A stretch of 64,000 nt of DNA from Trypanosoma brucei (taxonomy: Eukaryota): positions 1,056,001 to 1,120,000 of the forward strand of contig CP000066.1 in assembly GCA_000002445.1 (NCBI GenBank), written 5' to 3'. The notes under the pieces were generated by a model. It ran no database searches, was not told where the DNA came from, and was given only the letters and a program-made list of their open reading frames with translations. A program made the translations under genes and the position numbers. Each line of letters begins with the position of its first letter. The first letter of the stretch is position 1. Shown here piece after piece: positions 37,378 to 58,191 of the stretch.

Positions 37378-40300
37378 TGTTTTGTACAGATGGTTAACGC
37401 GTATTATGTGTATTTGTTTTGTTTCCTTCTTTTTATTTTGCTCATGTCAGTTTATTTATTCTTTTTTTCCCCCCTCCCCCTTCCATTCTCCCTTTTTTTT
37501 TCTGTTGTTGGTATTCTTTTAATTGGTCCAACTTTTTTTCTCGTCCGCCATGTGTGTGTGTGTGTGTGTATGTGTGTTTTGTTTTTGTTTTTGTCTCCAC
37601 TGTATTTTGTATTTTCCTTCCTTCCTTCACCACACTTCTTTTTTTTTTTGTTGTCGACCACTATCTGTATTTATTTTATATCCTCATGTGTTTGTGCTTT
37701 TGCTTTGTTGTATATCCTAATATATATATATATATATAATATACGTTAACTTTATTATTATTATTATTTTACGTTATTTATTTATTATCCTCCGATTGAG
37801 CTCGTGTCTTCCCGTTTCTCTGTATTTACACATTCTTCTTTTTTTTTTCCCCCTTTCCCTCTCCTTTGCGGTTACACTTGTGTTTATTTGCTTCATTTAT
37901 TTATTCGGTTTATTTTCTCCTGGTTCGCACGTGTACTGTTTTTCTTTTTTTTTTCTTTTTTCTTCCTGTTGTGTCCCATCAGGGGGAAAATAAATTCAAT
38001 CTTATATTTTGTATTTGACTACTCTTCCCTTCTTTTTGAGTTTTTGTTTTTCTCAAATTTCTTATTTTAAAAAAAAAAGAAATAAAAAAAACAAATCTCT
38101 TTTTTTTTTTTTTGATACGTTTTTATCTCCGTGTTTATTCTTCATTTCCCAATTATTTGCTTTCCTCGGTTGTCACGGCGGTCCGCCGTCCCCTTTTTAT
38201 TTATTTGTTTTTTTCTTTTTCTTATAGACACGACTTATATTTGTGAATATATATATATATTTTTACACCTTCCTCTTGTTCTTTAGTCATTTATTTACTA
38301 TTAACTAATTAATTTCACTTTCTTTTGTTTAATTATTTTTTTAAATTTTATTTGTAGTTATTATTCCAATAAATATATAATATAAATAAATGCTTGAAGG
38401 AACTGAAGTGTGTCCAAGTGGAGACTTGTTTTTGTTTTTTTAATAAAAAGAGAAGAAGATATAGAAAGTAAAGGGATGAAACAAGAGGAAAAAAAAGGGG
38501 GAAAAGTAATGAAAGTTCCTTTTATTTTCATAATAATATATTTATATATATATATATATATTTATTTATTTATATATTTATGTATTGTTTGTTTTGTTTA
38601 TTTAATGGCAAACTTCACGTGTGCGTATGCGTGTAACGGGAGGGAAAACCAAAAAAGAGTGAAAAGGAAATATTTCTCCGTTTGTTTGTTTGTTTGTTTT
38701 TTGAGTTTCTGGTTTTAAAAGAAAAAAAGTAATACAAAACAAAATAAAGCAAAATAGCGAAATGACGAAATAAATGACATTTGTACGAAAGTCATGATAT
38801 TAATAAATATATATAATTAATCACTTCTAATGCCTGGTTTCCACCGTTATTATTATTATTATTATTATTATTGTTTCGATTGTTATGTTTCTTCCTTCCT
38901 TCTATTTTGTTTGTTTGTTCGTTTGTGTTCCGACTCAAATGAAGCGGGAGGGAAAACAACACAACACAAGACAAAACATAACGAAAAAAAAATGAAATGA
39001 AATAAAGTAAAGTAAAAGTATCGGAATCAAATGAGTTAAAACGCTGGGAGAATTAAAATGATTGAGCGAAAAGAGTAAAGGAAGAATATATATATATATA
39101 TATAGAAGGAGGAATAATGCATAAAGGAATTATGAGGTGGGGAATAAATAAATAAATAAATAAATAAATAAATGAGTGAATAAATGAATTATTGAGGGAA
39201 ATGTGGACACTACTCAGTTCATTTCCGTAACGATTCCGCGCACCTTTTTAATTTTATTATATTATTATTTATGTTGTTATTATTACTATTTTTATTATCG
39301 TTGCTTTCGTGATGCGGTCCTCTCTTCATTTCCCCTTCTTTTTTTCTCAAATAATAGTTATTTGTTGTTGTTGTTGTTTTTGCCTGTCCCCGTGTTCTTT
39401 CTTCTTGTTTCTTTTAAAAAATTTTATTCACCATTATATTAAAATTAAAATTATTATTATTATTATTGTAATATCATTATTTATTCGGTGTCTTGTTATG
39501 TCCCTCTCCCCGAAAAATAAATAATAAAAAGAAAAATAAATTAATATTTCAAATTCACGGCACTCGGAAGCGGAGGAGAAAAAGGAAATAAACAAACGAT
39601 AACAATAATAGAAAGAATAGAAATAATCAAAAATAAATTATTCATATTTATTTATTTATTCATTCATGTTAAATAATGACGAGAAGAAGTTGAAAATAAA
39701 AAAAAAATAAAACAAAAAAAAGAAAAAAGTAGAAGTAAATGAAAGGAAAACAAAAGACCGAAGTGATTTGTTTTATCTTATTTAGGGTGCTTTAAAACAT
39801 TTGGCCGACAAATACAATACGTGAAGTTATTTTCTCTTCTTTTTATTATATTTATTTTGCCTGAACCTTATTTGTTATTTAATCGCCCTTCTTTTTTCTT
39901 TTTTGTTTTTTGTTGTTGATAGCTCCTCTGAAATGAAAGAAAAAAAAACAAGATAAAAAAAAAGAAACATATATATATATATATATATATGAGCGGAAAT
40001 GTATGTTTTTTTTTTTTTTTTGGGGGGGGGTGTGTGAGGGAAAGTTTTCCCTTTCTTTCCTTTTTATTTTCTTTTCACAGTTGTTCCTCCTCACTCAAAA
40101 ACAAAACAACAACAACAAAAAAAAAAAACAGCTACTATTACTACTGCTAATTGTGTCACCATTTATTTCCTGCTATTATAATTGTTAAATGCTTCCGTTA
40201 TTATTATTGTTTTTATTATTATTGATATTAATATTATTGATTTTGTTATGGTTGAACTCCCTTAAGTACATGTGCTTCTCTTCATTTTCCCCCTCTTTTC

Positions 40301-41681
40301 TTCTCTTCTCTTTTCTTTTTTTTTTTCTTTCCTTTAAAAAAAAAAAATCATTTGTTTTGTTTTCTTCTTTACATATCAGCGAAGGAATTACAATAAATTA
40401 AACAGCAGCAGCGACATTTCCGTCCAGAGTTAAAAACAAAAAACAAAAACAAAACAACAACAAAGAAGGAAACTGAAGGAAGGAAGTGATCGAATTAAAG
40501 AAAGAAAAGGCAAAGGCAAAAACAAAACAAATAAAATAGTGCGAAAAGAAAGGGAAGGAAAGTGGAAAGGCAGAGAGAAAGAAAAAAAAAAGAACAAAAA
40601 AAAAAGGGAAAGAAGAGAGAGAGAGAGAGAAGAAAATAAATAAATAAAAGCGAAAGGGGAAAAGGGAATTCATTTACTTGTATTTGTACTTGTGTATTTA
40701 TAAGTAAATACAAAAGAAGAAAAAGGACCAAAAAAAAAAAAGATACAACAACAGCAGCACCCCCCCCCACACACACAAAAAAAAAAGAAGCGGAATAACA
40801 CGGACACACACAAAAGTGAAAGTGAGCGTGTCACGTGAGAAGCAACAAAAAAAAAAAGAAGAGCAAAAGGAGGGTCGGATAAGTCCTTGGGTGATTTTTT
40901 TTTTTTTTTTAAAGGAGAAAAAAGGTGCGGAAAAAAAAAAAGAAAATTAAAACAAAGGGTACGAGGCGCACTTTACCGGGCCACATTGCTTTTTTTTTTT
41001 TTCAATACCATATTTTGGTTGGTTGGTTGTTGTTGTTTTGTCTTGTGTTTCTTTTGCTCTTAAAGGGTGAGTGTAGTTGACACAACTGCAAACACAAGAA
41101 GGGAGAAGAAATAACATATACGCATTTAATAAAGGGAGACAAATACAGCAACCACCACAAAATAGCTGAAAAGGTTGCAAAGGAAGAGAGAGAGAGAGAG
41201 AAAAAAAAAACACCAACACCAACAACAACAACAACAACAAACGATCTGAGAAGTGACTGAAATCACTCGCAGCGGTTTTTGAGCGTGAGTGAACTTCACA
41301 ATACAGGCGAGAGGCAGCCGCACAGCCTCCTTTCACCCTTCACTCACGAGGGTTCCGTGAGGCAGTTAAGGAGCGTGACGAATTAATAAAAAAAAGAAAC
41401 AAGAAAAAAAAAAGAAGAGGAGGAGAAACAGCAACATCAGGTGATATAGCTGTGGGACTGTGAAGAGGAGGTTTCACACACAAGAGGGAGTGTGGTACCA
41501 AAACTATACATACAGATAAAAGCAAGTGCGCATAACCTTCAAGGGAATACGAGAGGGCGTTGTTTGTGTATTTGTTTGCGTTTTTGCGTGTGAGTTTGCG
41601 TGTGTGTGTGTCTGAGAGAGAATAGTAAAAAACAACAACAACAACAACAGCAACAAACAAACCCCAACTGCAGGGTGAGTC
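37378..41681. repeat. 4.3 kb ORF-free AT-rich low-complexity/microsatellite span (probable long 3' UTR/intergenic region)
   Basis: Homopolymer A/T runs, (TA)n, (AAAT)n 39144-39172, (TTA)n 38845-38872, (GA)n 40612-40632, (AAC)n 41220-41250; only short F/L/K-rich ORFs translating low complexity. Confidence 0.7.
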
Positions 41682-43463
41682 ATGGAAGTTCCTTTTGAAG
41701 AAGGGACGCAGTTGGTTCATGCAATTGAGCGGTCCCAGCAACGGATTTTGGATGCCTCAGCGGTGAGTGACGTGGAGACGGTACCACCGCCGACAACTAC
41801 TGCAAATGCAAATGCAACTGCTGCTGTTGCTGTTGCTCTTAAGGGTTTAGCCACCACATCTGCGCATGTGCCGCTGCCACTCTTTGGTTTGGATGATGAG
41901 GGTCGAAGTGGCAAAACGCCATTGAATAATGAAAGCGGTCCGGGAACGAGCAGTAGTGGAAGCCATAGCAGCAGCAGCAATGTTCCTGTTGCGAGTTTGC
42001 GAGCCGGTACCGCTGGTACTCCTACCGTCACCCCGGCTGCGGACTCCCGTGCGGAATCTCAAAGTAGGACAAATCTCTTTGTGAGCAATATTCCCCATTT
42101 GTTAGGGAAAAATGAGTTGGTAGATTTATTTTCGCCATATGGAGAAATTCTTTCTGCGGCTGTAATGCGAAATATTCATACGGGTGACAGTCTCGGAACG
42201 GCTTTTGTGCGTTTCGCCACAACAGAACAGGCACAGGCGGCGATGGAGGCTCTAACGGGTTATGTGCTGGAGGGCCGCTCGATGGTTGTTCAATGGGCGA
42301 AGAGGCAACACGACGACACTCCCGTAGGCGAGGCCCGAAAGAAAATTGTGAAGTTATTCGTACGTAACATTCCTTTGGATGTCAGTGACGCCGATCTAAC
42401 TGAAGTGTTCAGCGCGTTTGGTCCAGTGAAGGGCGTGTCAATACATAAAGACACCACGCCAAACGCCGGTCGCCACTTGGAACGTCGCATCGCCTTCATT
42501 ACGTTCCACACCGACGGAGTCGCTGAGAGGGCAGCTGAGGCCATCCACAACACTCGTCCCTTTCACAGTTGTGGAAAAATTCCCCTTATGGTGAAGCTTG
42601 CGGAGGATAACCCCAGACATGGACGCAGTCACAACGCACAAAGTGGCCGCAGCGCTTGGGGACGGAATGGCAACACAAATCAAAACAACGATGGCAGCGT
42701 CAGTCGCAGTAGTCCAAGTGGCAGCGTTAGAAGTAACAAGTCATTAGGGATATCGGGCCATGGTTCCGCGAGAGGGGATATTCGTGGACTCGGTATTGAC
42801 ACACCAGGTGGCCTTCCGGGACTTTTTTCGCTCGGAACCGATGCTTGCGGTTTCCCGGGAGGCGCTTTTGCCGTCTTTCCGACTATGATCCCACAGGGCG
42901 GTGTTTTTGTGCCTCAACCCGTTCTAAACGTTGGCGTAGGCGTAAATGGTCAGGCAATGGCACTGAGGACTCCAATGTTTTGGCATCAGGCCGGCTCCAC
43001 CATTCCGGTTGGTGTTATGGGCCAAAGTCAATCCGCAAATATGGGAGCCACAGGCGGCAATTGTTCACATCAGGGGTTTGCATCCGTTTCTGAGGGTTCA
43101 TCATCCGAGCAGCAGCGTGTGGACATCTTTTCGTCCTTTGCACAACCGCCGCCATTCCCCACAGATCCGTTAGCGGGTCTTGTAGATTCCACGGGGTTTT
43201 CGTTTACGGCTCCTCCTCCTCCTCCTCCTGCTCCTGCTCCTCTTTCTTCTTCTGCAGTGGAGGTCGGCCCGGTTGTAAAAGATGATGTGGAGCCAACGAT
43301 GTGTCCGCATCCGAGCAGTAGTGATGTGTATGACGCCGATTCATCATTATCGCTTGATTTTCTGGAGAATTTGGGCGCGGCGGAGTTGTGCCACGTGACG
43401 ACTCCGTCTGGTGATGAGGACCACCGCCTGCATGCCCCCGGCTCATTTGTGCCGTTTTTGTAA
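41682..43463 (+). CDS. RNA-binding protein with two RRM domains and Gly/Gln/Ser-rich disordered C-terminal tail (family copy 2)
   Basis: ATG 41682; RRM1 'NLFVSNIPHLLGKNELVDLFSPYGEILSAAVMRNIHTGDSLGTAFVRFATTEQAQAAM', RRM2 'KLFVRNIPLDVSDADLTEVFSAFGPVKGVSIHKD...RRIAFITFHTDGVAERAAEAI'; nucleotide blocks identical to copy 1 (42129-42232 = 36415-36518). Confidence 0.75.
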   Translation: MEVPFEEGTQLVHAIERSQQRILDASAVSDVETVPPPTTTANANATAAVAVALKGLATTSAHVPLPLFGLDDEGRSGKTPLNNESGPGTSSSGSHSSSSNVPVASLRAGTAGTPTVTPAADSRAESQSRTNLFVSNIPHLLGKNELVDLFSPYGEILSAAVMRNIHTGDSLGTAFVRFATTEQAQAAMEALTGYVLEGRSMVVQWAKRQHDDTPVGEARKKIVKLFVRNIPLDVSDADLTEVFSAFGPVKGVSIHKDTTPNAGRHLERRIAFITFHTDGVAERAAEAIHNTRPFHSCGKIPLMVKLAEDNPRHGRSHNAQSGRSAWGRNGNTNQNNDGSVSRSSPSGSVRSNKSLGISGHGSARGDIRGLGIDTPGGLPGLFSLGTDACGFPGGAFAVFPTMIPQGGVFVPQPVLNVGVGVNGQAMALRTPMFWHQAGSTIPVGVMGQSQSANMGATGGNCSHQGFASVSEGSSSEQQRVDIFSSFAQPPPFPTDPLAGLVDSTGFSFTAPPPPPPAPAPLSSSAVEVGPVVKDDVEPTMCPHPSSSDVYDADSSLSLDFLENLGAAELCHVTTPSGDEDHRLHAPGSFVPFL

Positions 43464-44361
43464 CACACAGATGACTATAAAAGAATACGAAGGGTGTGTA
43501 TGTGTGTGGGTTACGAGTTTGTGTACCCTTCGTTCCATTTCGTTTCGCTCCGTTCCGTTTCTTCTCGTTTTCGTTTTCGTTTTTGTTTCGTTTTCGTTTT
43601 CGTTTTTGTTTTGTTTGTTTTTTTAATTTGGGGGACGGGGGATGGGAGGGGTTCCCACTTTTCGGAAACTTGTCTGCGTTCGTGCTTCTGTGTGCCTTTA
43701 GAAGAGGATCAAAAGGAGGAGGAGAGGAGTAGGAAGAAAGGGGGCAAATGATTTTTTTTTTTAAAAAAGAAAATAATAACAAGAGGGAAATGGCAGAGTG
43801 TACGGAGGGGAGTTATTGTACCCTTACTCACCTGTAAAAAAAAAAAAGAAATAGAAGAGTAAATAATAAAATGAAAAACAAAACAAAAAAAAACAACAAC
43901 AAAAGGAAAGGAAAGGAAAGGAAATGGATTCGGTGATTAGAACATAGTGAGCACAAATGGTTGGAGAAGAAAGTTCATAAAAAGAAGGTTTGCAAATGTG
44001 CGCGTTGTAGTGAATTTGGTGTACGTGTGTACGGCGGGGTGGGTTAGGGGTGGCAGGGAAGGAACAAGGAATGTTGTATATTTTTGTAATGAAAAATATA
44101 GTGAAACAAGAGGAATGTCACGCGTTTTTATTGTTATGTGCGCTTTATTATCACTGCTATTGTTATTGTTATCATTATTATTATTATTATTATTACTGTT
44201 ATTGTTATTGTTTTGTTGCTTACCAGAGAGATTTAATGAAGGATTCAGGTACGTGATTGATTGTGTGAAGAATATTGATGATGGATACGGATATGAATAT
44301 ATGAATATATGAATAATATTGTGATAATGATATACAGGACTGAAGTGTGTATGTGTGGAGA

Positions 44362-44392
<31 letters not shown>

Positions 44393-47300
44393 AGACAAGA
44401 GTTATGGGCGCAGGATGCGGGGAGATGTGCGCATTTAATGTGACCAATGAAAAAAAAGGAAAATGAAAATGAAAATATAATAATAATAAGAATAATGTTT
44501 TTCCCCCTTTTTTTAAAAAAGAAATGGAGTGTGAAATGAAAAGAATTAGAGCAGACACGGAAGAGAGTGAGGTAATGAAGCAGAGGAGGGAGATGAGTAG
44601 GAATAATAGAAAGGAATGCCGAAGCTGTGGGAAAGAGAGAGGCGAAAGAAACGAAGCGGAAAATAAAAAGAGGGATGTAACATATCCTTATGTAAATTAA
44701 TGGCTACTTCATTACCCTCAACTCTTTCTTCGATCCCTTTCCTCTCTTAACTCGTCACTTTATATTGTATTATTATTATTATTGATTATATTGTATTATC
44801 TTGTTTAATCTCTTGTGTCCCCCGTTCCGTTTTACCTTCCCACGACATTCAAATAAATTTTTCAATCGTTGACTTCTCGTTCCACCTTCTTTTCCTTCAT
44901 TTCATTTCATTTCACTTCATTTTCCTTTCCTTTCCTTTCCTGTTCTCTTTTTCTTTGCTCTTTTTTTCTTGTCTTTCTCTGTTCATTTCTTTTTCTTTTT
45001 ATCACTTGTTCCCCCCCGCGCGCGCTATTTACCTCCGTTTCCTCTCTTATTTTTGTTGTGTATGTTCGGGCTCTCTTTTTTTTTTCTTTTTTTTTTCTCG
45101 TTGTTTCTGTTCGATATTATTTGTTTTTGTTCTGTCGTGTTTTGTTCGGTGTTCTTTTTTTTTTTTTTTAAGTTTTAGTTTTTTGTTGTTGCGTGTGTTT
45201 TACCTTTTCCCCCATCATCTTGTTTTTTTCCCTGTCATTGTCTCTTGGGATCCGTTTTTGTTTCTGTTTCTCTATTGTTACTTTCCCGTTCATAGTGTAC
45301 GCTTTTCTTTCTTTTTCTTTAATGATAATAATAATAATTATTATTATTGTTTTTATTATATTAAATCAAACGATTCTTTTTCCCTCTTTCGTTTTTTTTT
45401 CAAACAAATTCCCAATACGGCAAAAATCCGGAAGAATGAAAGTAAAGGAATTAAAAAACAAAACAAAAAAAAACAAAAAAAAGCAAAGACGGGAGGAGGA
45501 ACGAGAACAAGAATAGACTTTTTTAAAACAAATGAATTGAACTGAAATGAATTCATATATATTCTCATTTTAAAGGAGGAAAACAACAAGGGAAAGAGGA
45601 AAAAAGAAAACTAATATTTATGATATGAAGGGAAATATTTCTCCCGTTTTGTTCGTTTTTCTCATGGGTGCATTCGAGCAAAATAAATGAGACAACTCAA
45701 GACGAAATAAAGTGAAAAAGAGAAGGAAAAAAAAAAAAGAAAAAGAACAACAAAGAAATGAGGGAATGAAGAAAATATCTCTCGGTCTTCCATTAGTTCA
45801 CTCACCACCTCCACTCATATAAAAAATATATATATATAAATAATTAATTAAATATATCAATATAAATTTATACATTTATTATTTTATTATTACTACTAAT
45901 ATTATTACAGTTATTATCATCATCATCATCATCACTATCATCATCATTATTGTTATTATTGTTCTTTTTTTTTCTTTATTGTTTATTGTTTTTAAAATTA
46001 TTATTATTATTATTATTATTGTTATTGTTGTTCATCGTAGTTGTGATGGCGGCAACAAATAATGAGTGGAGGTTGCATGGCCAAACTAAAAGGAAGAGGG
46101 AAACGAGGGGAAACGAGGAAAAGGAAAAAAAAAGAAAAAAGAAAAGAGTGAAATTAAATGAATTAAATGAAATGTATAATATATAATGTATAATCCACCA
46201 ATATTTTGTTTTTTTTGTTTTTGTTTTTGTTTTTTTGCCTTTGGTTTACTTGTGAAAGAAAGGAAAGAAAGACCAAACAAAATGAATTGAAGTAAATGGC
46301 AAAAAAAAAGAAAAAAAAGTAACAAAAGCAAAAGACAAAGGGGGAAAAAACAACAACAACAAAAAGGTGTGAGATTATACAAAATTGTATGTTCCTTTAA
46401 GAATTTGTGTTTGTTTGTGGTTTGTTTATTATTATTATTATTATTATAATTTTCATCGTGACTCATTACCGTTGAAAGTAGTCGTCCATTTTGACAAAGC
46501 GGAGAGGCGAAGGGGGAGTGGTGGTGGTGGTGGTGAAGTGGAGAAGTGGAGAAGTGGAGAGGGGGGGGGGAAAAAACAAAAGAAAAGAAGAAATTTTGTA
46601 TGAGAGAAAATCAAATTTAAAAACAAAAACAAAACAAAAAAAAACAAACAAAATGTATAAATATAAATAAAAGAAAAAGAAAAGAAAAAAAATGACATAT
46701 TGGGGAATTACACCACGTCAAGTGTACGAAAAAAGTGAAATTGAATTGAATTGAATGAGATAAGATGAGATGAGATGAAACGCAAAATGTACACACGTAA
46801 AAAAAGGGGGGGGAGGAAAAAGAAAAGAAAAGAAAATAATAATTCCTTTTTTTTAAAAAAAAAGGAGGAACTGAAGAAATATCGCCATGGGAGGAGAGAC
46901 GGTGACCGCTAAAGTGACCGATATGACACAAATAACAATTAAATAAAATGAGCGAATGAGCGCTTTCGTTTAGCAAAAAAAAAAAAAATAATAATAATGA
47001 TAATAATAATTAAAAGTGACGGGCTTTCGTTATTATTTCCAAGTGGCAGAAAAAAAAAAAGAAAAATAAAGGAAAGTGAAGAATATGTTGTGTGCGTGTG
47101 TTTTCTTTTTCTTTTTTTCTTTTTTTTTTTTCTCTCCTTCTCACAAATTAAAAGAAAAACAAAATAGTAATAAAAGAGAGAGAGAGTGAGTGAGTGAAGA
47201 AAGGAAGAAAGGAAGGAAAAAGAGGTAACAGAAAAAATGAAAAGGAAAAGAATAAAGGAGAATATACCTTTATGCAGAAATAAATAAATAAATAAATAAA

Positions 47301-47870: not shown

Positions 47871-47906
<36 letters not shown>

Positions 47907-48089
47907 GTGTTCGCTGCTTTTCCCTCCCAAACCGTAACGCCGTGTGTCATGTAAACAAGTGATTTTTGTTGTTTCCTTTTTTTCTTTTTCTTTTCCTTTT
48001 TTATTTTATTTTAATTTGATTAATTCTTCCTTTCTTTCCTATCAAAAACAAAACAAAACAGAAAATAAATAAAAACACATATACACATA

Positions 48090-48102
<13 letters not shown>

Positions 48103-48146
<44 letters not shown>
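48103..48146. repeat. (CA)n dinucleotide microsatellite, about 22 units
   Basis: acacacacac... read directly. Confidence 0.9.
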
Positions 48147-48148
<2 letters not shown>

Positions 48149-48404
48149 GAATAAATAATAATAATAATAAAACAACCGTTCATTTGCCACCGTTAGCATA
48201 TTTTACTAACAACAGCATCATTTCAATAATATTAATATCAATAATAATAATAATAATAACGGTAGTAATGGTAACTATTATATTATCAATATTATTATTA
48301 CGTTATTATTGTTATGTTTATTTATTTATTTTGAATTGTTTTTGATATTATTATTATTATTGATATTATTGTTGTTGTTGTTCTTATGTTAATGAGATAT
48401 GAGG

Positions 48405-48408
<4 letters not shown>

Positions 48409-48455
<47 letters not shown>
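48409..48455. repeat. (TA)n dinucleotide microsatellite, about 23 units
   Basis: tatatata... read directly. Confidence 0.9.
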
Positions 48456-48458
<3 letters not shown>

Positions 48459-51400
48459 TACATTTATTATTATTATTATTATTATTTTAAAGAGCGTGGC
48501 ACCGAAGTGCTGAATAAAAGTGAAAATGAAAATGAAACGAAATTTTATGTTATGTTATGTTGTGTTGTGTTGTGTTATGTTTTTATTTTATTTTTGAATG
48601 GAGATGGGAAAGAAACACATAAGGCACTGAAAATGGAATGCATCGTTCATCGTTTTTTTTTTGTTTTCTAGAAACAACCCCGGAGAAACCCGAAGGGGAA
48701 ATACAAAAAAAAAAGGAAAGGGAATATAATATGTATATTTTTATATTTATAGCAATGGGATGATGAAAGGTGGAGGGAAGAATATGCGAGGATACGTATG
48801 GAGTTTTATGTTGTATTAATAATTTCAGCAAAAAAAAAAAGGAGGAGGAGGAAAGGAAGAACAGGAAAATAAAAAGGAAAAATAAAAAAAAAAGATAAAA
48901 TAAAAGCAAAAAAAAAAACTTGAAATATGTGTGGACGTGATAACATAATCACGCCTTTCCCCTGTTCTTTGCTTTTAATTTTTATTTTTGTTAGCGTTGT
49001 TTTTCTTGTCATTTGCTACGAAAGACCTGAGATAAATGCGTATCTGTTTTGTTGTTTTTTTTTCTTTTGTTAATAATCTCTTTATTATGTTATATTATAT
49101 TATATATTGTACTCAAATTAAATTAAATTAAATTTTTGTACTGTATTGTCTTGTCTTTTCTTGTCGTAACGCTGCCAGTAGTCGCAGCAGCAGTTTTGGT
49201 CTCGAGGGAAGAGATGGATTGAAATGAATTTTAGAAAAAAAAAACAATAGGAAATAATAATAATAATAATTATTATTATTATTATTGTTGTTATTGTTAT
49301 TGTTATTGGTAAAACCGAAATAATTGTAAAGCAACGAGGAGGGGATGGTAATGAAAGTGGTGAAAAGGTACGAGTGGTGCATGGAACTCTTTTCTTTCTT
49401 TTTTTTAGAAAAAAAAGAAAGAAAAGAGAATGACATGAAGAATTTTTATGCCCGTTATACTTTAGATGTAAAGGAATAACAACAGAAACAAAAACAAACG
49501 ATAATAATAATATTAATAACAACAATATCATCATCATCAAGGAAGTCGCTTAACAAAAAAAAAAAGAAAATGTACACAAAGGTGCAAAAATGCACAAACT
49601 TATAAATATATAAATATAAATATAAATATGTATGAATACATGTTTGTATTTTGTATTTTGTATATATTTATATATACGTAAATTTCTTTAAGTGTTACGA
49701 TTGCTATGTTGAAGTGAAGCGATTCATTTGACGGAGCGGTACCCGGTAATCGCACGAATTTTATTTATGCCATTTCCTTACCGGACTGTCCTCTTTTTTT
49801 TTTTTTCTTTCACTTCCTCTTCATATTGTTCCTTTTCTGATTTATTGTTTTTGTTTTATTTACTTATTTTTATTTCCTCCCCTCTTAGGCATATTTCCCC
49901 CACCTTCCTTCCCTCCGTGGTTTCATTTGCTATCGGCAGTACCGATCTGTGTTCTTTTTTTTTTTAAAATAAAAGAAAAAGGAAAACAAAAAAAAACTTT
50001 TGGCTTTGATATTTCCCCCGATTATTATTGTTATTATTGTTATTATTGTTATTATTATTATTGTTATTGTTATTATTGTTTTTGTTATCGTTTGTTTTCA
50101 TTGCTGTGTTTTCATCGTGTAACCGCATCTTTTTTTTTTGTTATTTGTTTTTCTTTCCTTTTGTGTACGCTTATATTTGTACAAATATATTTGCATATGT
50201 ATCTGCGTGAATGCGTGGTTTGTGTTTTGTTTTTGTTTTATTTTATTTTCCTGCTTCTCACTTGCACGTCAGTTTCAACATCAACAACATCAACATCAAC
50301 ATCAACAACAAAAAGAAAAAGAAAAAAGAAAAAGAAAAAGAAAAAGAAAGCAGCTCTGCCCACATTCCCTCACCCGTTTCCTGTTTTTTTCACTTACACT
50401 TTTTGTTTTTGTTTTTGTTTCCATTTTGCTCTGCTCGACTCTTTTTTGTTTTTTTTTTGTTTTCAAGTTTGTTTCCACCGCGTGACTTTCTTTTTCCATC
50501 CCAGTGTGTTATGATTAGGATTATGACAGCTATAGTTACTACAATTATAATTATAATTACAATTGCAATTTATTGTTATTATGATTGTGGTTGTTGTTAT
50601 TTGCCCCCTTTTCATTGTTCGTCTGTGTCATTCTTCCACGCCCCTCTGCCTTTTTTTCTTTTCCTTTTTTTCTTTTCTTTTCTTTTTTTTCTTTTCCCAT
50701 TTTGTTTGTTCGTTTGTTGTTTTGAATTTATTCATTCATTCATTCGTTTTCTCTTTGCCTTTTATTTTTACTTTTAATTGAATGAAAGGCTTTTCACTTA
50801 TGTGTGTTGCCACCTGCGGGAATTTTTTTCACACACCTCATCTCTTTTTTTTTTCTCTCTCTCTCTCTCTTTCTCTTTCTCTTTCTCTTCTTTTTCTTCT
50901 TTTGCCACTTTTCCCTTCTTTCTTCAGCTGAGTCAAACAATCCGTAATATATATAAATAAATATATAAAAATATAAATATATATATATATATCTTTTCCC
51001 TGTTGTTTTTTTTTCTTCTTCTTTTACTGATATTACTCACATATGTATTCTTTTACTTGAGCCCTCATTCCATTTATCTTTTTTCCTTCTTATTCTTCTT
51101 TGTTCTTTTTCTTTTTTTCATATTTCACTTTATTCGAATAACTTTTGCTCGTGTAAATGATAAAAATAAAATAGAAAGAACAAAGAAGAAGAAAGGGAGA
51201 CAGCCATACAAAGAGGTGGGAAATAGGAAAAGGTAGAAGAAAATAATAAAAAAAAAAGAGAGAGTGAGAGTAAGAGTGAGAAATAGTGCGCGTGTTTGTG
51301 TGAAAGTTGTTCGCATTAGTGTTTTTGACGACACGTGAGCGGACGGTGCTTTTTTTGTTTGTTTGTTTGTTTTGTTTTGTTTTCAGTACTTAACCAACGG

Positions 51401-51570
51401 AAAGAGAAAAGGGAGAGAGAGAGAGAAAAAAAAAGAAAGAAAAAAATATATAAATATACACATAAATATATAAATAGTAGCAAAGGTTGAAAAGAAAACA
51501 ATAGCACCGTATCGAAGTCAAAAGGAAGTGAGTGAGTGAGTGAGTGCGTAAGAGGAAGGAGGAGAATAAA

Positions 51571-53223
51571 ATGCCTCCAAAACGCTCAAAAGGTGTAACA
51601 TTTAAACTCGTCCACCAGCCATATGATGACGCGGAGAACACCGGAGGGCGTAAAGCCATAATGGTGGAAGAGCGAATAGTGCGTCAGCATTTACCGGCAT
51701 CGGGTTCAGGACGCGGACGCCGTCAGCGGGATGATGATGACAGCTTTTGTGATGATGGAGGAGCCTCTATGTCAACTGTAAGTCGTTGGGCACAAGAATG
51801 GGATGAGACATCGGCACCAACTGAACGTAACGCAGGAATGTTAGAAGGTGAAGAGGATTACTTAAATAGGCACAACTTTCTTTTGGCACAGGACCCTGAT
51901 GATGATGATGATAATAATAATAATAATAAAAATAAAAATGATGAATGTGCTGATGATGGCGGCTATGAGGATATTAGTGATAATGACGGTGGTGCATGTG
52001 AAGGAGTTACTAAGAAGTCTAGAAGTGAAGCCGCTGACGGTGAGGAGGAAAGTAGTGACGATAAATTGTTTGATGACCAGGAGGAAGGTGAAGTAACGGA
52101 TGAGTTTCTGAGACAGTTGGTTTTTGGCGGAGAAGACGATGATTTGGATGTTGACAGGCGCCGATGTGGTGATGATGATGATGATGATGATGACGGCAAT
52201 GATGACGGAAGTACAAACCGTGACAACGTCCCGGCAAGTTTTGTGCCACATGACACGACACGGCGTGCGATTGACCGCCAGTTCACACAACTGATGCGTG
52301 AGTTCACCGTTGATGAGAGGTTAAATGACGCTTATACCGATGACCCGCGGACGCAAGGTGCGCTAGACGCTGACCAGTACCTCCGCGCTATGGAAGAGTT
52401 TGTCGTTGAGCGTGCCGGTATTGATTATAGAACTGCTGAGCCAATGCGAAATAAGGGCCTTATTCACCAGCTAAAGAGCATGGCATACGGCGTTCCAACC
52501 GACATGACGGCTTCGGGTGATGTAATCACAACGACAATTTTGCCTGACAAAAAAATACGTTTCGCAACGGAATTTAAACGGGAGACAGAGGAGATCCGGA
52601 GAGCCGCTCGGGAGCGTATATTGCGCCGTCAGGCTGAGGCTCAGAAGAACGCTGCGGACGGTGAAGTGAAAATAGGTCATGATAGCATGGGCGCTAGTGA
52701 AGAAATGGATGATGATTGTAATCACGATGATGGCACATTTCAGGTGAGGAATGCTGCAAAAGCGAATAACTCATCAGAATGTGGCAGCGAGTCGCAGGAG
52801 GAGGAGGAGGAGGGGGAAACATATGTTGTGCGGAGGATCGTAGATAAGTCCAACCGCCTTGATTGCGAGACAGTTTTATCAACTTACTCCACGTACTTCA
52901 ATCAACCTAACGTCATACGGGCCCCAGACGCGGGAAAGAAGCGGAAGGGTAAAAAAGTTACTCAACCGCACCGTGACAATAATGAGGGTGATGACATGTC
53001 GCAGGAGGTGCCGGACTTGAGCACGTCGGTGTTGTCCTTAGCGAAAGGAAAGAATGAATCGAAGGAGGAGAAAAAGATGCGAAAGCAGTTGGTAAAGGAT
53101 CTGAAGCGCGAACGCCGTGGGAAGAAGAAGGAACTTCGACAAGTGTACAAGACAATGGAGGCTGAAGAAGCCCGCCGTGTGAAGGAGTCGCAAACGGCGA
53201 GGAAGACATTGTCCTTCTTGTAA
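51571..53223 (+). CDS. LTV1: Ribosome biogenesis factor LTV1 (low-temperature viability protein) homologue
   Basis: Start re-called at ATG 51571; the ORF-track start 51544 is GTG. N-terminus 'MPPKRSKGVTFKLVHQPYDDAEN' matches LTV1 'M.KKKFIDKK.SVTFHLVHRSQ.DPL'; highly acidic D/E/N runs; C-terminal basic KR-rich tail. Confidence 0.8.
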   Translation: MPPKRSKGVTFKLVHQPYDDAENTGGRKAIMVEERIVRQHLPASGSGRGRRQRDDDDSFCDDGGASMSTVSRWAQEWDETSAPTERNAGMLEGEEDYLNRHNFLLAQDPDDDDDNNNNNKNKNDECADDGGYEDISDNDGGACEGVTKKSRSEAADGEEESSDDKLFDDQEEGEVTDEFLRQLVFGGEDDDLDVDRRRCGDDDDDDDDGNDDGSTNRDNVPASFVPHDTTRRAIDRQFTQLMREFTVDERLNDAYTDDPRTQGALDADQYLRAMEEFVVERAGIDYRTAEPMRNKGLIHQLKSMAYGVPTDMTASGDVITTTILPDKKIRFATEFKRETEEIRRAARERILRRQAEAQKNAADGEVKIGHDSMGASEEMDDDCNHDDGTFQVRNAAKANNSSECGSESQEEEEEGETYVVRRIVDKSNRLDCETVLSTYSTYFNQPNVIRAPDAGKKRKGKKVTQPHRDNNEGDDMSQEVPDLSTSVLSLAKGKNESKEEKKMRKQLVKDLKRERRGKKKELRQVYKTMEAEEARRVKESQTARKTLSFL

Positions 53224-54464
53224 AGGTAGAGAAATGAAAAGTTTTTGTCGTTTGTTTCCTTTTAATTGCCACTTTTGTGTGGATTCACGCCAGGAGGTGC
53301 CACACGGTGTTTTGCAATGTAGCGATGTGTTGTTACCGCTCCATGTGTTTCTCCTGTTGTCCGTCGCAATTAAAACTTCACTTCCGTTTAGCAGCCGTTT
53401 GTAGTGGTTACTGGCCGTTGTGATTGGTGAATCAATTAATGTCTTGCAGTGTATATGCGTTTATGCATACTTTTCACCTCTCCTGCAGGTGCTTCTTTTT
53501 GGGGAAGTGGAATTCATATGCACACGCAACACAAGGTGAGCACAATCTAAAAGTATTCGAGTAACTTTATTTGTGGTAATACAGGAAAAAAGTGAAATAC
53601 AAATATATATATATAAGAGATGCAAATGTAGGGGGGGGGAGCTAAGAAGAGAAGAGCAGTGAAACAACAACAACCGCTAGGGATTCGGCTAAGGGAAGAG
53701 TAAACGTGGGGAATGTTAGTGAATTTCAACTGCGCCACGTCCGTGGTCAACACACACACACACATATATGTCATGTATATATCATGTATATAATATATAT
53801 ACATATATATGTGTGTTTATTTATGAGTGCGTGTTAGAATCGAGAAGCATTACGCCTTATGTCTCTTGCTGAATCATGTGTCTTTTTTTTTTTTTTAAAA
53901 AAAGCACATGAGTGTAGCAGCGCCCTTCTGTTTGTTGCATTTCAAGGTTTTTTTTATTTTTACTTCCCCTTTCTCTTTTTCACATTCCGCAGTATAACGT
54001 TGCACAGTTTGCAAAGGCCGAGAACTCCTCTAAGAAGTCGCATGAACTTTAACACTCTCCTCCAACTCTATTGCTTGTCGCTATCTTACTCCCTTCCTTC
54101 CTTCCTTCCTTCCTTTTCATTTCATTTTATTTTATTTACTCTACTTTTACTTGCGCATTTTCTTATTGTTGCTGTTGTTCCCTGCTTTTGTAATATTAGT
54201 TTATTTTATCTGATACACTTGTGACCCTTTGGAGGGGGAGGGGTGAGGAAACCAACGTATCACCAGGTTTGTAAGGTGCAAAACGAAGGAAGCGGGTAGT
54301 TTCAGGGGGAGGGGCCCTGTTCGGCGTTCATAACAAATCTAAACACTGAAACAGACAGAAAAAAAAAAGAAATAATTATACATACATTAAAAACTCACAA
54401 AAGTAGCCTAGCAGTAGGAGGCATCTTGTAGAGGGAATAACCGAACAGGGGTAACGCACCGCAC

Positions 54465-55598
54465 ATGATGCCGTGCAAGTCATTTCCTCCGTCCTCTAAA
54501 TTATTGAGGCATCGGTCAAGCGAACTTTATAGCCGTGACAATTTATTCATGTGTAACTTATCGGCTGCCGTGGATGAAGCGGTGCTTAAGCAAATCTTTT
54601 CGCCATATGGAGAAATTCTTTCTGCGGCTGTAATGCGAAATATTCATACGGGTGACAGTCTCGGAACGGCTTTTGTGCGTTTCGCCACAACAGAACAGGC
54701 GCGTGCGGCTCTGGTGGGTTGTCATGGGCGAGTGGTTTGTGGCCGTGTGCTGTCGGTTCAATGGGCGAAGAGGCAACACGATGGCACTCCCGTAGGCGAG
54801 GCCCGAAAGAAAATTGTGAAGTTATTCATACGTAACATTCCTTTGGATGTGGGACCTGAAGATGTGCAACGTCTCTTTGAACGTTTCGGTACTGTGGAGA
54901 GCGTATCACTGCACAAAGACACTGCTGCTGCAACTCCCACTACTGACAACAGCCGACCCCAACGCCGCATTGCATTTGTGACATTTACGGAATCTGGTGT
55001 TGCTGATCGTGCAGCTGAGGCTGTACACAACACTCGTCCCTTCCCATCTCATGGTTCCGTCCCATTAATGGTAAAACTTGCAGAAGATCATTCGGAGCGC
55101 CGGCTCGCTGCTGCCGCTGCTGTGGCTGGTGGAGGTTCGGGGCATAACTCCTCATCATTTTGTGTTCCTCAGCCCCGTTTTGTTGGCCGACAGCAGCCAA
55201 AAGTTCTGCGCCCCCCATCGGGCGAACGTTTGCCCGTGCAACCGCTTTGTGTTTTGGGCTCGAAAGGAAGCGGCCCATCACCAATTCTCCGCTCTCCAAA
55301 TATTGTGGCAGCTACGCGAGTTGATGATTTTATGGATATTGCGGTTGGGCGTTGGAAAATGCCGGAACCCCTTTCTACTACAATAAACACATGTTGTACC
55401 GTTATGCCACAGGCTCCGGTTGGAACCAATGGTAAATTTTTTACCGTTTCAGGTAGTGGACTCTGCGCGGCATCGCGATCAGCCATAAGTTGTTCCATAT
55501 GTGAGAGCAAAAAAGGCATGAGGTACACTCATGAACCATACCGAAGCGTTGTGTGTAACCCCACTGGCATTCCGGTGCCGCCTTCACCAGTGGATTAA
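54465..55598 (+). CDS. RNA-binding protein with two RRM domains, short N-terminus and divergent C-terminus (family copy 3)
   Basis: ATG 54465; 583-bp block 54569-55151 is identical (1 mismatch) to copy 1 36387-36969, encoding both RRMs; flanks diverged. Confidence 0.65.
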   Translation: MMPCKSFPPSSKLLRHRSSELYSRDNLFMCNLSAAVDEAVLKQIFSPYGEILSAAVMRNIHTGDSLGTAFVRFATTEQARAALVGCHGRVVCGRVLSVQWAKRQHDGTPVGEARKKIVKLFIRNIPLDVGPEDVQRLFERFGTVESVSLHKDTAAATPTTDNSRPQRRIAFVTFTESGVADRAAEAVHNTRPFPSHGSVPLMVKLAEDHSERRLAAAAAVAGGGSGHNSSSFCVPQPRFVGRQQPKVLRPPSGERLPVQPLCVLGSKGSGPSPILRSPNIVAATRVDDFMDIAVGRWKMPEPLSTTINTCCTVMPQAPVGTNGKFFTVSGSGLCAASRSAISCSICESKKGMRYTHEPYRSVVCNPTGIPVPPSPVD

Positions 55599-58191
55599 GC
55601 GACGCCTTGCCTACCCTTTGCCTTGCCTTTCTTTGCCTACCCTTTGCCTTGCCTTCCTTCTTTCCTTCTTTCCTTTATTTCGTGTTGTTTTTTTTTGTTT
55701 CTTTTCAAAAAAAAAACAAAGGAAAGTTATGTGGTGATATGATTTGCATTTTTTTTTTCATATATATATATATATATATTGAATAAGTTGTGCCGTTTCT
55801 CTGGCATGCTAGCTCTTTAGTTTATTATTATTATTATTACTGCACCTTCAGCAGCAGTGGATGAAATGAAGGGGAGAGACGGGAGTATTTGCTGATCCGT
55901 TCTTTTTTTTTCATTTTATTATTTTCATTAGTTTTATTATGTTTATTTGGACCATGTGCGTGGGTCTTTATTTATTTCAACGTCGTCTCCTCTCATGATT
56001 TATTCACCACATTTTGTTTGTTTATTTTTATTTTCCCCTCCTCTCCTCCCCTCTCCCGTATTTATTTTATTTGCTTCCAGTATTTCCCTTGAGTCAAGGG
56101 TGAGGTGACAGTCATTAATGACATCAATAATTTCCTCCCACTTGCCTAATGACGTTGAGACGATTCTTTTCGAGTCTCTTTTATTTATTTATTTATTTAT
56201 TTTTTCTCTCTTATTTTTATTTATTTAACTTTATTTATTTAGTTTTATTGCTCTCCGAGTGTTTATTATTGTTAATATCATTTATGACGTTTGATTTATC
56301 CTTTTTATTTTTTATTATTTTTGAATAGAAGGCGACTGAAAATAGGAGGGGGGGGAATTACGAAGTTGAGCGGGGTTTTGTTATATTTGGCCCCTGCAGT
56401 GCTTGAAAAAAGCTCAAAGACAATAACTTCGGCTCCTCCTAATCAAATGAAATGACGCTCTGAATAAATTCCCGTTTATTTTTTGTGTTTATTTATTTTT
56501 TTTATTTGCTTATTTTGTTTGTTTTCTTCAAGGTTATTATTATTATTACTGTTACTATATATATATATATATATATATGATATTTATTTTACGTTTATTT
56601 TTACGTTATTAAAAAAAAAAATATAATGATTCATTCATTTTATTTTTATTTATTTCGTTTAGTTCTGCTTGTGAGTGATTTGTGTATCTGTTAGAGAGGA
56701 TAAATAAAATTAGAGAGAAGAAAAAATAAAATAAAATGAAAAAGAAAATGAAAGGAAAGAGGGAAGAGGAGGAAAATAATAATAATAATTATTATTATTA
56801 TATACAAGTGATGGGACTGGCATATTTTACATAAACCAGTGTGTGTGTATGTATTTTTATCTTGTTAATATTTTAATACGTACGAATTGATTGACAATGA
56901 TGATGAAGGAGGGAAATAAATAAATAAATAAATAATTGAAACAAAATCGAGCCGAAAGGGAAAATGCAGAGGTGACAACAACAATAACAAAAACTGGTAG
57001 CAAAGCTAATATGAATGTCAATGAAAATAATGACAATAATAATAGTAATAATGACAATTATATAATATTAATAATGACAATACCGAAAAAGGTATTACTT
57101 TTGTTTTTGTTTCTATTTACCCTTTCCTCCCTCCTCTTCCCTCCTCTTTTCTTTTACCCATCAGCCGAAGTGTTTGTATTTTTTTTTCCTGTTTATTATT
57201 ATTATTTATTATTATTGTTGTTATTATTGTTGCGGGTTTTTGTTACTGTTTTTGCTACTAATGTTGAGCTGTTCCTCATTTCCTTTCCTTCTTTCTTGTT
57301 TGTTTGTTTAAGTTTCATTATTATTATTATTTATTTATTTTTTTAAAGGAAAACTCTCTTGTTTTAATGAGAAGTGAAATGCGATCACATAAATCAATAA
57401 ATGGATGAATTAAAAGAAAAGAAAAGAAAAAAAATGCCTGATTTTGCGTGAACTTAATCTCTCCACATTTATTTATTTCTTGTGTTGTTTATCTTATTCT
57501 TTACGTAATGCAGTTTTAATGGAGCAATGGTGAGGAGATGACACACAAATATATACAGAATCAAAGTCCCGAAGCAAAAGAGAAGGAGAGAGAGGAAAAA
57601 AAAACGGTAAGATATTTAAGATGACGGTAGATTTTTTTTTTAAAAAAAAGGAGAGATAAAAGGAAATAACAAAAGAAGTGAAGTGTCAACATAAAAAAAA
57701 AAAAGAAAAGAGAAAGGAAGAAAGAGAACAGCAAAGAAATGAGGAAAAAGAAATATATAAACACATAAATGGTGAAAATGACATTTCATCCCTTTTTTTG
57801 GTGATGCTCATATTTCTTCACTGGAGCTATCAGCGATACTTCCGGCACCAAAAAAGAAAAAAAAAATAAGAATTTGTTTTGACTTCATAGCATAATGTTT
57901 GTTTGTCTTTTTTTCTATCCATATCTTCTCATTGATTTTTGTTAATTAAATGGTAGCGTCATATTTAGCGTCTCATTTTGGTGGTTGTTGTTGCTGTTGT
58001 TGTTCAAGCCGCGTGTTAGGCGCATTATTATTATTATTACAACTAGTCCTTAGTCACAAACAGAAATACGCACACGCATATATATATATATATATTGTGG
58101 GTTTTTTTTACTTTGTGTTAAACAATAAATAAATAAATAAATAAAAAACGCATTTAGTTGCTTAGCGCACTTTATAGGACACATCCGTTCA
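55599..58191. repeat. 2.6 kb ORF-free AT-rich low-complexity span downstream of RRM copy 3
   Basis: (TA)n 55760-55790 and 56555-56580, (ATAAATAA)n, (ATT)n; no credible ORF. Confidence 0.65.

Follow-up and report, generated by a model that had tools for sequence, protein, structure and literature searches.

Individual trypanosome genes cannot be controlled at transcription. The mRNAs of trypanosome RNA-binding proteins often carry 3'UTRs of several kb, as is stated in papers from the Clayton laboratory, and a preliminary description of the locus studied here had presumed this for several developmental regulators. One such mRNA is that of the RRM protein RBP10 (Tb927.8.2780), which is derived from a polycistron, is developmentally regulated, and has a 7.3-kb 3'UTR containing many internal polypyrimidine tracts. 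Northern blot and RNA-seq data established the length of this 3'UTR, of which six or more fragments were shown to regulate reporters. The paralogous RNA-binding-protein genes ZC3H20, ZC3H21 and ZC3H22 form a cluster in which each mRNA has a 3'UTR of more than 4 kb, proposed to permit graded developmental control, and in which RBP10 sites have been counted and linked to the timing of expression (Clayton 2019). A third system is that of the T. brucei intergenic spliced-leader (SL)-capped lncRNAs, exemplified by grumpy, which is located upstream of RBP7 (Guegan 2022). These lncRNAs are AT-rich, non-coding, in sense orientation and located near genes for RNA-binding proteins, and they are discrete RNAs of roughly 0.2–1 kb with mapped ends.

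The window analyzed here is a stretch of 64,000 nucleotides of T. brucei chromosome 3, in which a window position equals the Tb927_03_v4 position minus 1,056,000. Five genes with consecutive published identifiers (Tb927.3.3930, 3940, 3950, 3960 and 3970, none intervening) are all located on the + strand, and all coordinates in the preliminary description were verified. The first RRM gene, DRBD6B (Tb927.3.3930; CDS 36097–37377), encodes 426 amino acids with two RRMs (Pfam RRM_1, E=4e-30) and the C-terminal motif HDPY, the motif and the name being taken from PMC3985637; its 5'UTR is 172 nt long, from the SL site at 35925 (Kolev) to the ATG at 36097. The second, DRBD11 (Tb927.3.3940; CDS 41682–43463; the name follows PMC3998935 and Table S1 of Clayton 2019), encodes 593 amino acids with two RRMs found by Pfam, and its product showed 100% identity with proteins of T. 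equiperdum/T. brucei. The third, DRBD6A (Tb927.3.3960; 54200–55598, CDS 54465–55598), carries the motif HEPY; its 5'UTR starts at 54200 according to Kolev, or alternatively at 53993 if the tabulated value of 472 nt is read as the TriTrypDB 2015 5'UTR. Between DRBD11 and DRBD6A lies an LTV1-like gene (Tb927.3.3950; 51175–53223, CDS 51571–53223), whose product had no match in a Pfam search and matched human LTV1 in the PDB (6g18_t, E=1.6e-6), and DRBD6A is followed by a zf-LYAR gene (Tb927.3.3970; 57957–59085, CDS 58192–59085), assigned by Pfam zf-LYAR and the Kolev tables.

The distance from the stop codon to the next ATG is 4304 nt after DRBD6B, 8107 nt after DRBD11 and 2593 nt after DRBD6A, and these are the largest three among the 18 gaps of the window, a ranking expected by chance with a probability of 1/816. 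The remaining 15 gaps measure 216–2247 nt (median about 0.9 kb). The GC content of the RRM gaps is 0.29–0.30, compared with 0.38–0.51 in the other gaps and 0.48–0.58 in coding sequences, and the RRM gaps are rich in microsatellites and homopolymer-like tracts. The outsized AT-rich spans that had been reported after the three RRM genes were thus confirmed. The gap after DRBD6A barely exceeds the 2247-nt gap after Tb927.3.3900. A 583-nt tract in the RRM-coding part of DRBD6B (36387–36969, +) is 99.8% identical by blastn to positions 54569–55151 in DRBD6A (repeat families D12 and D20); this tract is all that the two genes share, and the homology ends within the CDS. The possibility that the spans are homologous to one another was rejected, as the likeness of the first and third RRM genes is confined to the coding sequence.

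Published transcript maps place the whole locus within one Pol II polycistronic unit that extends on the sense strand from Tb927.3.3440 to Tb927.3.4000 and covers the spans (Kolev 2010 Table S14). The alternative raised in the preliminary description, that the spans are untranscribed spacers, was therefore rejected. The SL sites and the coordinate map were taken from Kolev 2010 Tables S3 and S12, which describe procyclic forms, and the sites in use are located at 40380 (DRBD11), 51175 (LTV1) and 57957 (LYAR). In the position-sorted Table S12, no site or novel transcript was listed for procyclic forms downstream of any RRM gene until the site of the following gene itself, and no Tb3.NT transcript was listed between 3930 and 3970. 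The rule of the first AG after a polypyrimidine tract recovered each of the five SL sites mapped in this region. The versions of Kolev 2010 Tables S5 and S13 consulted here contained no poly(A)-site entry for the RRM genes or their neighbours.

We conclude that the three spans are probably transcribed non-coding parts of a single Pol II polycistron and mostly UTRs of mature mRNAs. The SL sites and the single transcription unit come from published data and the length of the DRBD6A 3'UTR is derived from tabulated TriTrypDB values, while the present analysis provided the size and composition of the gaps, the lack of known RNA families and of ORFs with cross-species conservation, the presence of long gaps in further species, and the finding that the DRBD11 leader is free of ATGs. 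In trypanosomes, the 3' end of an mRNA is fixed by the first downstream trans-splice signal (polypyrimidine tract and AG) that is in use, and polyadenylation takes place about 140 nt before it; Kolev 2010 (main text) gives a median of 142 nt between a poly(A) site and the splice site that follows. The three signals in use would accordingly give 3'UTRs of about 2.9 kb for DRBD6B, at most about 7.6 kb for DRBD11 and 2.2 kb for DRBD6A, and the DRBD11 mRNA, with its 1.3-kb AUG-free 5' leader, would measure about 10.7 kb. All three lengths (2217 nt, database-derived, and up to 2861 and 7570 nt, predicted) are several-fold above the genome median of 388–400 nt; the 3'UTRs in Kolev 2010 have a median of 388 nt and range up to about 6000 nt.

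The DRBD6A 3'UTR would occupy 55599–57815 (+). Its length of 2217 nt was obtained by subtracting the CDS (1134 nt) and the 5'UTR (472 nt) from the transcript (3823 nt) given in the tables of Antwi 2016, the values being read as TriTrypDB lengths and the meanings of the columns being inferred from the methods and legends. The resulting 3' end at 57815 is 142 nt upstream of the LYAR SL site, and the rest of the 2.6-kb span consists of the processing region and the 235-nt LYAR 5'UTR. At least the 3'UTR of DRBD6A appears to be present already in the community database.

The final 1302 nt of the 4.3-kb gap after DRBD6B constitute the DRBD11 5' leader, and the DRBD6B 3'UTR can therefore be no longer than about 2.9 kb. 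This 3'UTR is predicted at 37378–40238 (+; about 2.86 kb at most), its poly(A) site being predicted from the SL site at 40380 and the 142-nt median, and the 3'UTR would be continuous over this distance. It opens with a 930-nt pyrimidine-rich block (37413–38342), has a GC content of about 0.30, and contains 39 ATGs and seven sense (UAU)n tracts.

The candidate 3'UTR of DRBD11 extends from 43464 to 51033 (+), up to about 7.57 kb, upstream of the next mapped SL site at 51175; with a poly(A) site predicted in the same way, it could reach about 7.6 kb. The last 396 nt of the 8.1-kb span are the ATG-free LTV1 5'UTR. The proposal that the spans represent giant 3'UTRs of the RRM genes holds in that they are transcribed and in that DRBD6A appears to have a 3'UTR of 2217 nt, but not over their full extent, as the end of each span belongs to the 5'UTR of the following gene.

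Strong internal polypyrimidine-AG sites are present in the DRBD11 span (44707–45320; 47101–47142, a run of 42 pure pyrimidines whose following AG would give a site at 47155; 47573–48040; and 49759–49965) and in the DRBD6A span (55605–55706 and 57098–57344). The DRBD11 span may be processed into shorter forms via such sites, and an alternative is that the spans, chiefly the 8.1-kb one, are mostly cut there into much shorter RRM 3'UTRs and SL-capped polyadenylated non-coding RNAs. The spans share ordinary splice and poly(A) signals with the SL-capped lncRNAs, of which 1428 intergenic, AT-rich examples with an SL and poly(A) have been reported in T. brucei. The same alternative outcome was described by Clayton 2019 for precursors with two splice signals, and fragments of this kind arise from more than 200 mRNAs upon loss of DRBD18. 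Against this alternative, which we regard as unlikely, the annotated DRBD6A transcript continues past the internal tracts as far as the span extends, and the Kolev table places no site between these genes in procyclic forms; the spans thus differ from the discrete lncRNAs in having no independent 5' end recorded in that data set. If the spans are mostly UTRs, the numerous internal tracts must normally be bypassed, although they may occasionally be used to give shorter isoforms. Bypass of internal tracts in T. brucei has been attributed to DRBD18, by proposed masking, and such suppression of internal processing sites would account for intact UTRs of 2–8 kb full of polypyrimidine tracts.

A further alternative is that the spans contain genes missing from the annotation, either protein-coding or for structured RNAs such as snoRNAs or tRNAs, as new small genes have been found in T. 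brucei intergenic regions by Kolev and others and as ORFs of 100–196 amino acids are present in the spans. The translations of these ORFs are of low complexity and had no significant match in a Pfam search. When 423 stop-to-stop segments of at least 25 amino acids from all six frames were compared by tblastn (E≤0.01) with the syntenic loci of T. vivax, T. theileri, T. cruzi, T. congolense and Leishmania, none matched, whereas LTV1 and LYAR, included as positive controls, gave matches. All Rfam matches were located on AT or TA repeats and scored far below the gathering scores, the best reaching 40.6 bits where the family requires 81 and coming from a TA repeat that is not part of the spans, and ARAGORN predicted no tRNA genes. 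Together with the lack of novel transcripts in the spans in the Kolev lists, these results leave hidden genes very improbable, and they agree with the earlier statement that the spans hold no credible ORF.

The 5' end of the DRBD11 mRNA is also unusual. Its trans-splicing signal (40275–40379, +) consists of a 61-nt polypyrimidine tract (40275–40335) with the first downstream AG at 40378–40379, and the major SL site at chromosome position 1096380, corresponding to 40380 in the window, has a dispersion of 6 nt (Kolev Table S12). The 5'UTR (40380–41681, +) is 1302 nt long and purine-rich (A 44%), so that the mapped SL site is far from the start codon, with no upstream AUG. Against this absence of ATGs, 13.1±3.6 were expected, and zero was reached in 0 of 2000 simulations; the leader is included in the longest stretch of the window that has no ATG (1409 nt; about 40270–41682). 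Upstream of the DRBD11 orthologues, the corresponding ATG-free intervals measure 905, 828 and 611 nt, which gives a range of 0.6–1.4 kb over T. brucei, T. vivax, T. cruzi and T. theileri. Kolev gives the length of the DRBD11 5'UTR as NA, for which no explanation was found. A tentative reading is that the mRNA of DRBD11, a repressor-type RNA-binding protein, is exceptional in its length of about 10.7 kb, and that in it the AUG-free 1.3-kb leader, about ten times the genome median, and the 3'UTR of about 7.6 kb form a two-ended switch of translation and stability; the AUG-free leader would, on the same tentative footing, imply selection for uninterrupted scanning or a specialized mode of initiation.

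Long gaps, similar in length to those of T. brucei, follow the orthologues of these genes in other trypanosomes. The gaps are 3924 and 7004 nt in T. vivax (other gaps, 368–1468 nt), 2442 and 3078 nt in T. cruzi (other gaps, 416–1443 nt), 2264 nt in T. congolense, and about 4.0, 7.5 and 3.6 kb in T. theileri, where the sizes include runs of N; the gap of about 7.5 kb in T. theileri and the 7.0-kb gap in T. vivax are the counterparts of the DRBD11 gap. No block of span sequence was conserved between species. In comparison with T. b. equiperdum, the spans show 9.6–11.4 substitutions and 12–21 indels per kb, and ordinary intergenic DNA shows 4.8–9.2 substitutions and 0–8.5 indels per kb; the rate of change of the spans within T. 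brucei is thus no lower than that of ordinary intergenic DNA. The GC3 of the five local genes is 0.42–0.48, compared with 0.50–0.62 in the other 14 genes of the window, and the AT-richness of the spans may therefore reflect regional mutation bias instead of selection. The long gaps of T. vivax are not AT-rich; their GC content of 0.46–0.47 resembles that of its other gaps.

The lack of sequence conservation, the high rates of change, the AT shift at third codon positions and the GC content of the T. vivax gaps favor the alternative that the spans are included in transcripts but that their length and AT-rich simple sequence result from microsatellite expansion and regional mutation bias and carry no specific regulatory information. 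This appears decidedly improbable, as the same genes are trailed by long gaps in five Trypanosoma species in which neighbouring gaps are short, the mRNAs are post-transcriptionally regulated within a polycistron, and long 3'UTRs are a class-wide tendency of mRNAs for RNA-binding proteins and kinases. Furthermore, UAU repeats are enriched on the sense strand 3' of DRBD6A, and the same bias is seen in both T. cruzi (19:0) and T. congolense (18:0).

If the spans are mostly UTRs, the DRBD6B mRNA would be about 4.4 kb long, and the UTRs of the three mRNAs are inferred to have a regulatory role. They probably hold mRNA levels low and probably supply many redundant low-complexity binding sites (UAU repeats and U-rich, A-rich and AAGAA tracts) for stage or stress control. 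DRBD6A mRNA is increased after heat shock at 39°C, DRBD6 mRNA reportedly peaks in salivary-gland forms, DRBD11 mRNA was reported at 235 RPKM in blood forms and 22 RPKM in salivary-gland forms, and DRBD11 protein is more abundant in procyclic than in slender or stumpy bloodstream forms. The suggestion of post-transcriptional, stage-specific regulation is in line with these reports of developmental or stress regulation of the mRNAs or proteins. In contrast to RBP10, the only length among the three that rests on database annotation is that of DRBD6A, and in contrast to the ZC3H20/21/22 UTRs, no equivalent trans-acting factor is known for DRBD6/DRBD11. The RBP10-binding motif UAUUUUUU showed no enrichment in the spans after DRBD6B and DRBD11, each of which has one copy.

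In conclusion, the UTRs of RNA-binding-protein mRNAs are the level at which trypanosome regulators are themselves regulated. The general principle of long 3'UTRs on such mRNAs is already published, and DRBD6/DRBD11 add cases to it rather than a concept. If the present interpretation is correct, DRBD11 would rank with RBP10 among the T. brucei mRNAs with the longest UTRs, and the DRBD6/DRBD11 cluster would comprise three neighbouring paralogues with differing UTR designs and opposite stage patterns, DRBD6A being higher in salivary-gland than in procyclic forms and DRBD11 lower. Such a cluster would lend itself to dissecting the mode of action of long low-complexity UTRs.

Tb927.3.3970, placed at 1114192-1115085 of Tb927_03_v4 by Kolev et al. 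2010 (PMC2936537), coincides with positions 58192-59085 of the window, so that window coordinates equal chromosome coordinates minus 1,056,000. This offset was confirmed by four other genes, for which the spliced-leader (SL) site plus the 5'UTR length in the Kolev tables led to the chosen ATG. The genes considered here are Tb927.3.3930 (DRBD6B, HDPY motif; CDS 36097-37377), Tb927.3.3940 (DRBD11; CDS 41682-43463), Tb927.3.3950 (LTV1-like; CDS 51571-53223), Tb927.3.3960 (DRBD6A, HEPY motif; CDS 54465-55598) and Tb927.3.3970 (zf-LYAR; CDS 58192-59085). DRBD11, a 593-aa RRM protein, shared 100% identity with T. equiperdum/T. brucei proteins; the LTV1-like gene matched human LTV1 in PDB (E=1.6e-6) and had no Pfam match. 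No transcript-derived contigs encoding the exact proteins are on record for the TREU927 sequences. A blastn comparison identified a 583-nt tract common to DRBD6B (36387-36969) and DRBD6A (54569-55151) with 99.8% identity, which was limited to the RRM-coding part, the flanks and the N- and C-termini being unrelated; DRBD11 was 89% identical to the same tract over 258 nt. The 583-nt tract looks like the outcome of a recent gene conversion involving two paralogues separated by 18 kb.

The gaps following the three RRM genes measured 4304 nt (DRBD6B), 8107 nt (DRBD11) and 2593 nt (DRBD6A), compared with 216-2247 nt for the 15 other gaps in the window, and their GC content was 0.29-0.30, compared with 0.38-0.51 for the other gaps and 0.48-0.58 for coding sequences. 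These values confirmed the preliminary description, in which a long AT-rich span was seen after each RRM gene. The spans are patchworks made up of microsatellites and of pyrimidine-rich blocks alternating with purine-rich blocks. They are not duplicated UTRs, as blastn matches among the three were restricted to coding sequence and low-complexity scraps. GC3 of the five genes Tb927.3.3930-3970 (36097-59085) was 0.42-0.48, and that of the window's 14 remaining genes was 0.50-0.62; the AT shift is thus regional and affects coding sequence as well as spacers, and the composition of the spans may partly reflect a regional mutation bias. An almost pure pyrimidine-rich block of 930 nt (37413-38342), which takes in the greater part of a 704-nt ATG-free interval (37686-38390), starts 36 nt past the DRBD6B stop codon and is found in T. 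b. equiperdum as well. It could serve pyrimidine-tract proteins as an unusually long binding platform, or could be a cryptic splice signal with its first AG leading to 38358.

Synteny of Rpc34, the kinase, the RRM genes, LTV1 and zf-LYAR was conserved, and the largest gaps followed RRM genes in every species examined. These gaps were 3924 and 7004 nt in T. vivax (other gaps 368-1468 nt), 2442 and 3078 nt in T. cruzi (416-1443 nt), 2264 nt in T. congolense (no other gaps in the contig), and about 4.0, 7.5 and 3.6 kb, N runs included, in T. theileri (856-1282 nt). Three RRM copies are present in T. brucei and T. theileri; in T. vivax none lies between LTV1 and zf-LYAR, and T. cruzi has a single RRM gene before LTV1. 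In the T. vivax, T. cruzi and T. theileri loci the long gap tracks whichever RRM gene is present. In Leishmania martiniquensis an 899-aa RRM orthologue is the sole annotated gene in 22.7 kb (positions 1-22700 of the syntenic locus, where a 522-aa ORF lies at 16079-17647), and in Leishmania the distances around RRM genes may be greater still. No phylogenetic footprints were detected in the spans against T. vivax, T. theileri, T. cruzi and T. congolense, for which coding sequence alone aligned, and relative to T. b. equiperdum the spans gathered substitutions and indels at rates no lower than those of other intergenic DNA. The long gaps of T. vivax are not AT-rich, unlike those of T. brucei. Between species, span length is similar and sequence is not conserved.

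Tb927.3.3440 to Tb927.3.4000 form one plus-strand Pol II unit (Kolev Table S14, PMC2936537), and the spans, being internal to it, are therefore transcribed as precursor. The untranscribed spacers that had been proposed as one alternative to giant 3'UTRs are thus rejected. The other part of that alternative was unannotated ncRNAs. Rfam matches in the spans were all far under the gathering score and positioned on TA or AT repeats, no tRNAs were found, and the position-sorted procyclic splice-site table of Kolev et al. held no further gene or novel transcript between Tb927.3.3930 and Tb927.3.3970. Hidden conserved genes were rejected as well: none of 423 stop-to-stop ORF segments (at least 25 aa, six frames) matched the syntenic loci of five other trypanosomatids, in a search in which the controls LTV1 and LYAR matched as expected, and the longest span ORFs had no significant Pfam match. 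The spans are therefore confirmed as long, AT-rich and gene-free, and the earlier statement that they hold no credible ORF stands.

Major SL sites were mapped at window positions 35925, 40380, 51175, 54200 and 57957 (Kolev et al. 2010, PMC2936537), and all five were recovered by a simple rule that takes whichever AG comes first once a strong polypyrimidine tract has ended. The site at 40380, which comes after a 61-nt run of pyrimidines, precedes the DRBD11 ATG by 1302 nt; the 4.3-kb span therefore ends in 1.3 kb of 5'UTR. Since the median distance from a poly(A) site to the next splice site is 142 nt (Kolev et al. 2010, PMC2936537), 3'UTRs were predicted by subtracting this median from the next mapped splice site, which gave 2861 nt for DRBD6B (37378 to about 40238), 7570 nt for DRBD11 (43464 to about 51033) and 2217 nt for DRBD6A (55599 to about 57815).

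UTR lengths were absent from Fadda 2014 and from heat-shock tables; Antwi et al. 2016 (PMC4845500), who took transcript lengths from TriTrypDB as of July 2015, and 5'UTR and uORF data also from TriTrypDB, provided a length for DRBD6A only. For Tb927.3.3960, one of their tables gives 3823 and another gives 472 followed by 0, which we read from the methods, legends and neighbouring rows as transcript length, 5'UTR length and uORF count. With columns read in this way, 3823 - 1134 - 472 equals 2217 nt, an exact match to the predicted 3'UTR and independent support for it. The 472-nt 5'UTR implies a splice site at 53993, which was also flagged by the tract rule. DRBD6A thus has two SL sites, this one and the procyclic site of Kolev et al. 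at 54200 (5'UTR 265 nt); each is preceded by a polypyrimidine tract, and the leader is ATG-free from each.

The proposal that the spans are giant regulatory 3'UTRs is accordingly partly supported for the three spans together. It fits DRBD6A, with the Antwi values as read here; for DRBD6B it is plausible at the predicted 3' end in a form shortened by the 1.3-kb DRBD11 leader; and for DRBD11, again at a predicted 3' end, it is plausible but unproven. The main rival is that the spans, above all the 8.1-kb span, undergo split processing or yield lncRNA-like products. Several strong internal polypyrimidine-AG sites are present in the spans; published work reported that sites of this type are ordinarily passed over in long 3'UTRs and that depletion of DRBD18 activates them, resulting in shortened mRNAs and SL-capped downstream fragments. 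Long 3'UTRs on RNA-binding-protein mRNAs are a kind of feature already known: according to papers from the Clayton laboratory, the longest 3'UTRs in trypanosomes are those of mRNAs for RNA-binding proteins and kinases, including RBP10, with a 7.3-kb 3'UTR containing at least six regulatory fragments, and ZC3H20-22, with 3'UTRs of more than 4 kb. No main text discussing the UTRs of DRBD6A, DRBD6B or DRBD11 was found in the literature.

DRBD6A mRNA was reported to increase 2.5-3.3-fold after heat shock at 39°C. Its abundance falls at least 4-fold short of the half-life prediction in each of the two stages (labelled 'Both low' by Antwi et al. 2016, PMC4845500), and a salivary-gland peak was reported for DRBD6 mRNA (salivary-gland/procyclic ratio 4.7). 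DRBD11 mRNA was reported at 235 RPKM in blood forms versus 22 in salivary-gland forms, was enriched 4.9-fold in starvation granules, is a CSD1 CLIP target and showed altered polysome association after RBP6 induction, and the protein was more abundant in procyclic forms than in either slender or stumpy bloodstream forms. Because the genes share a polycistron, these differences must be post-transcriptional, and for DRBD6A and DRBD11 these correlative literature data agree with the post-transcriptional regulation suggested in the preliminary description.

The RBP10 motif UAUUUUUU was not enriched in two spans and only weakly in the third, and was rejected as a span feature. UAU repeats (UAUUAUUAUU) are a verified ZC3H11 target. 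UAUUAUUAU occurred at 5.2-5.3 per kb in each 3' span, compared with 0.5 per kb in the remainder of the window, and was absent from the DRBD11 leader; the density of (UAU)n in the spans was ten times that in the other gaps of the window. Downstream of DRBD6A, TATTAT reached 10 per kb on the sense strand in T. brucei (55599-57850), and the sense:antisense ratio of UAU repeats was 19:0 in T. cruzi (11411-14488 of the syntenic locus) and 18:0 in T. congolense (2055-4318). These repeats were dropped as a span-specific signal, since they turn up frequently in some ordinary T. theileri and T. cruzi gaps too and are missing from the DRBD11 gap of T. vivax. Taken together with the heat-shock increase, the target repeats suggest that DRBD6A mRNA may be controlled by ZC3H11, which is only a lead.

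The sequence independently bears out the 5'UTR defined by the SL site at 40380. The longest ATG-free interval on the plus strand of the entire 64-kb window (40270-41682, 1412 nt) extends from just before the polypyrimidine tract and SL site of DRBD11 to its start codon. The DRBD11 leader (40380-41681) contains no ATG where 13.1±3.6 were expected, and zero was reached in none of 2000 first-order Markov simulations; all 13 splice-site-defined 5'UTRs of the window are ATG-free, and the putative 3' spans contain 14-20 ATGs per kb. An ATG-free interval also precedes the DRBD11 orthologue in T. b. equiperdum (1416 nt), T. theileri (611 nt), T. vivax (905 nt, 9.9 ATGs expected) and T. cruzi (828 nt, 9.2 expected), and in the latter two it is the longest such interval in about 21 kb. 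In Kolev Table S12 the entry for Tb927.3.3940 has NA as its 5'UTR length, even though the site at 40380 is upstream of the CDS and not inside it, and candidate minor SL sites lie nearer the ATG at 40915 and 41066. [quoted passage not shown] 2010, PMC2936537), and lowered expression was reported for reporter leaders of more than 200 nt. The ATG-free interval in DRBD11 and its orthologues points to a conserved, unusually long 5' leader free of upstream AUGs, and this leader, recurring across the orthologues, is the most interesting by-product of the analysis.
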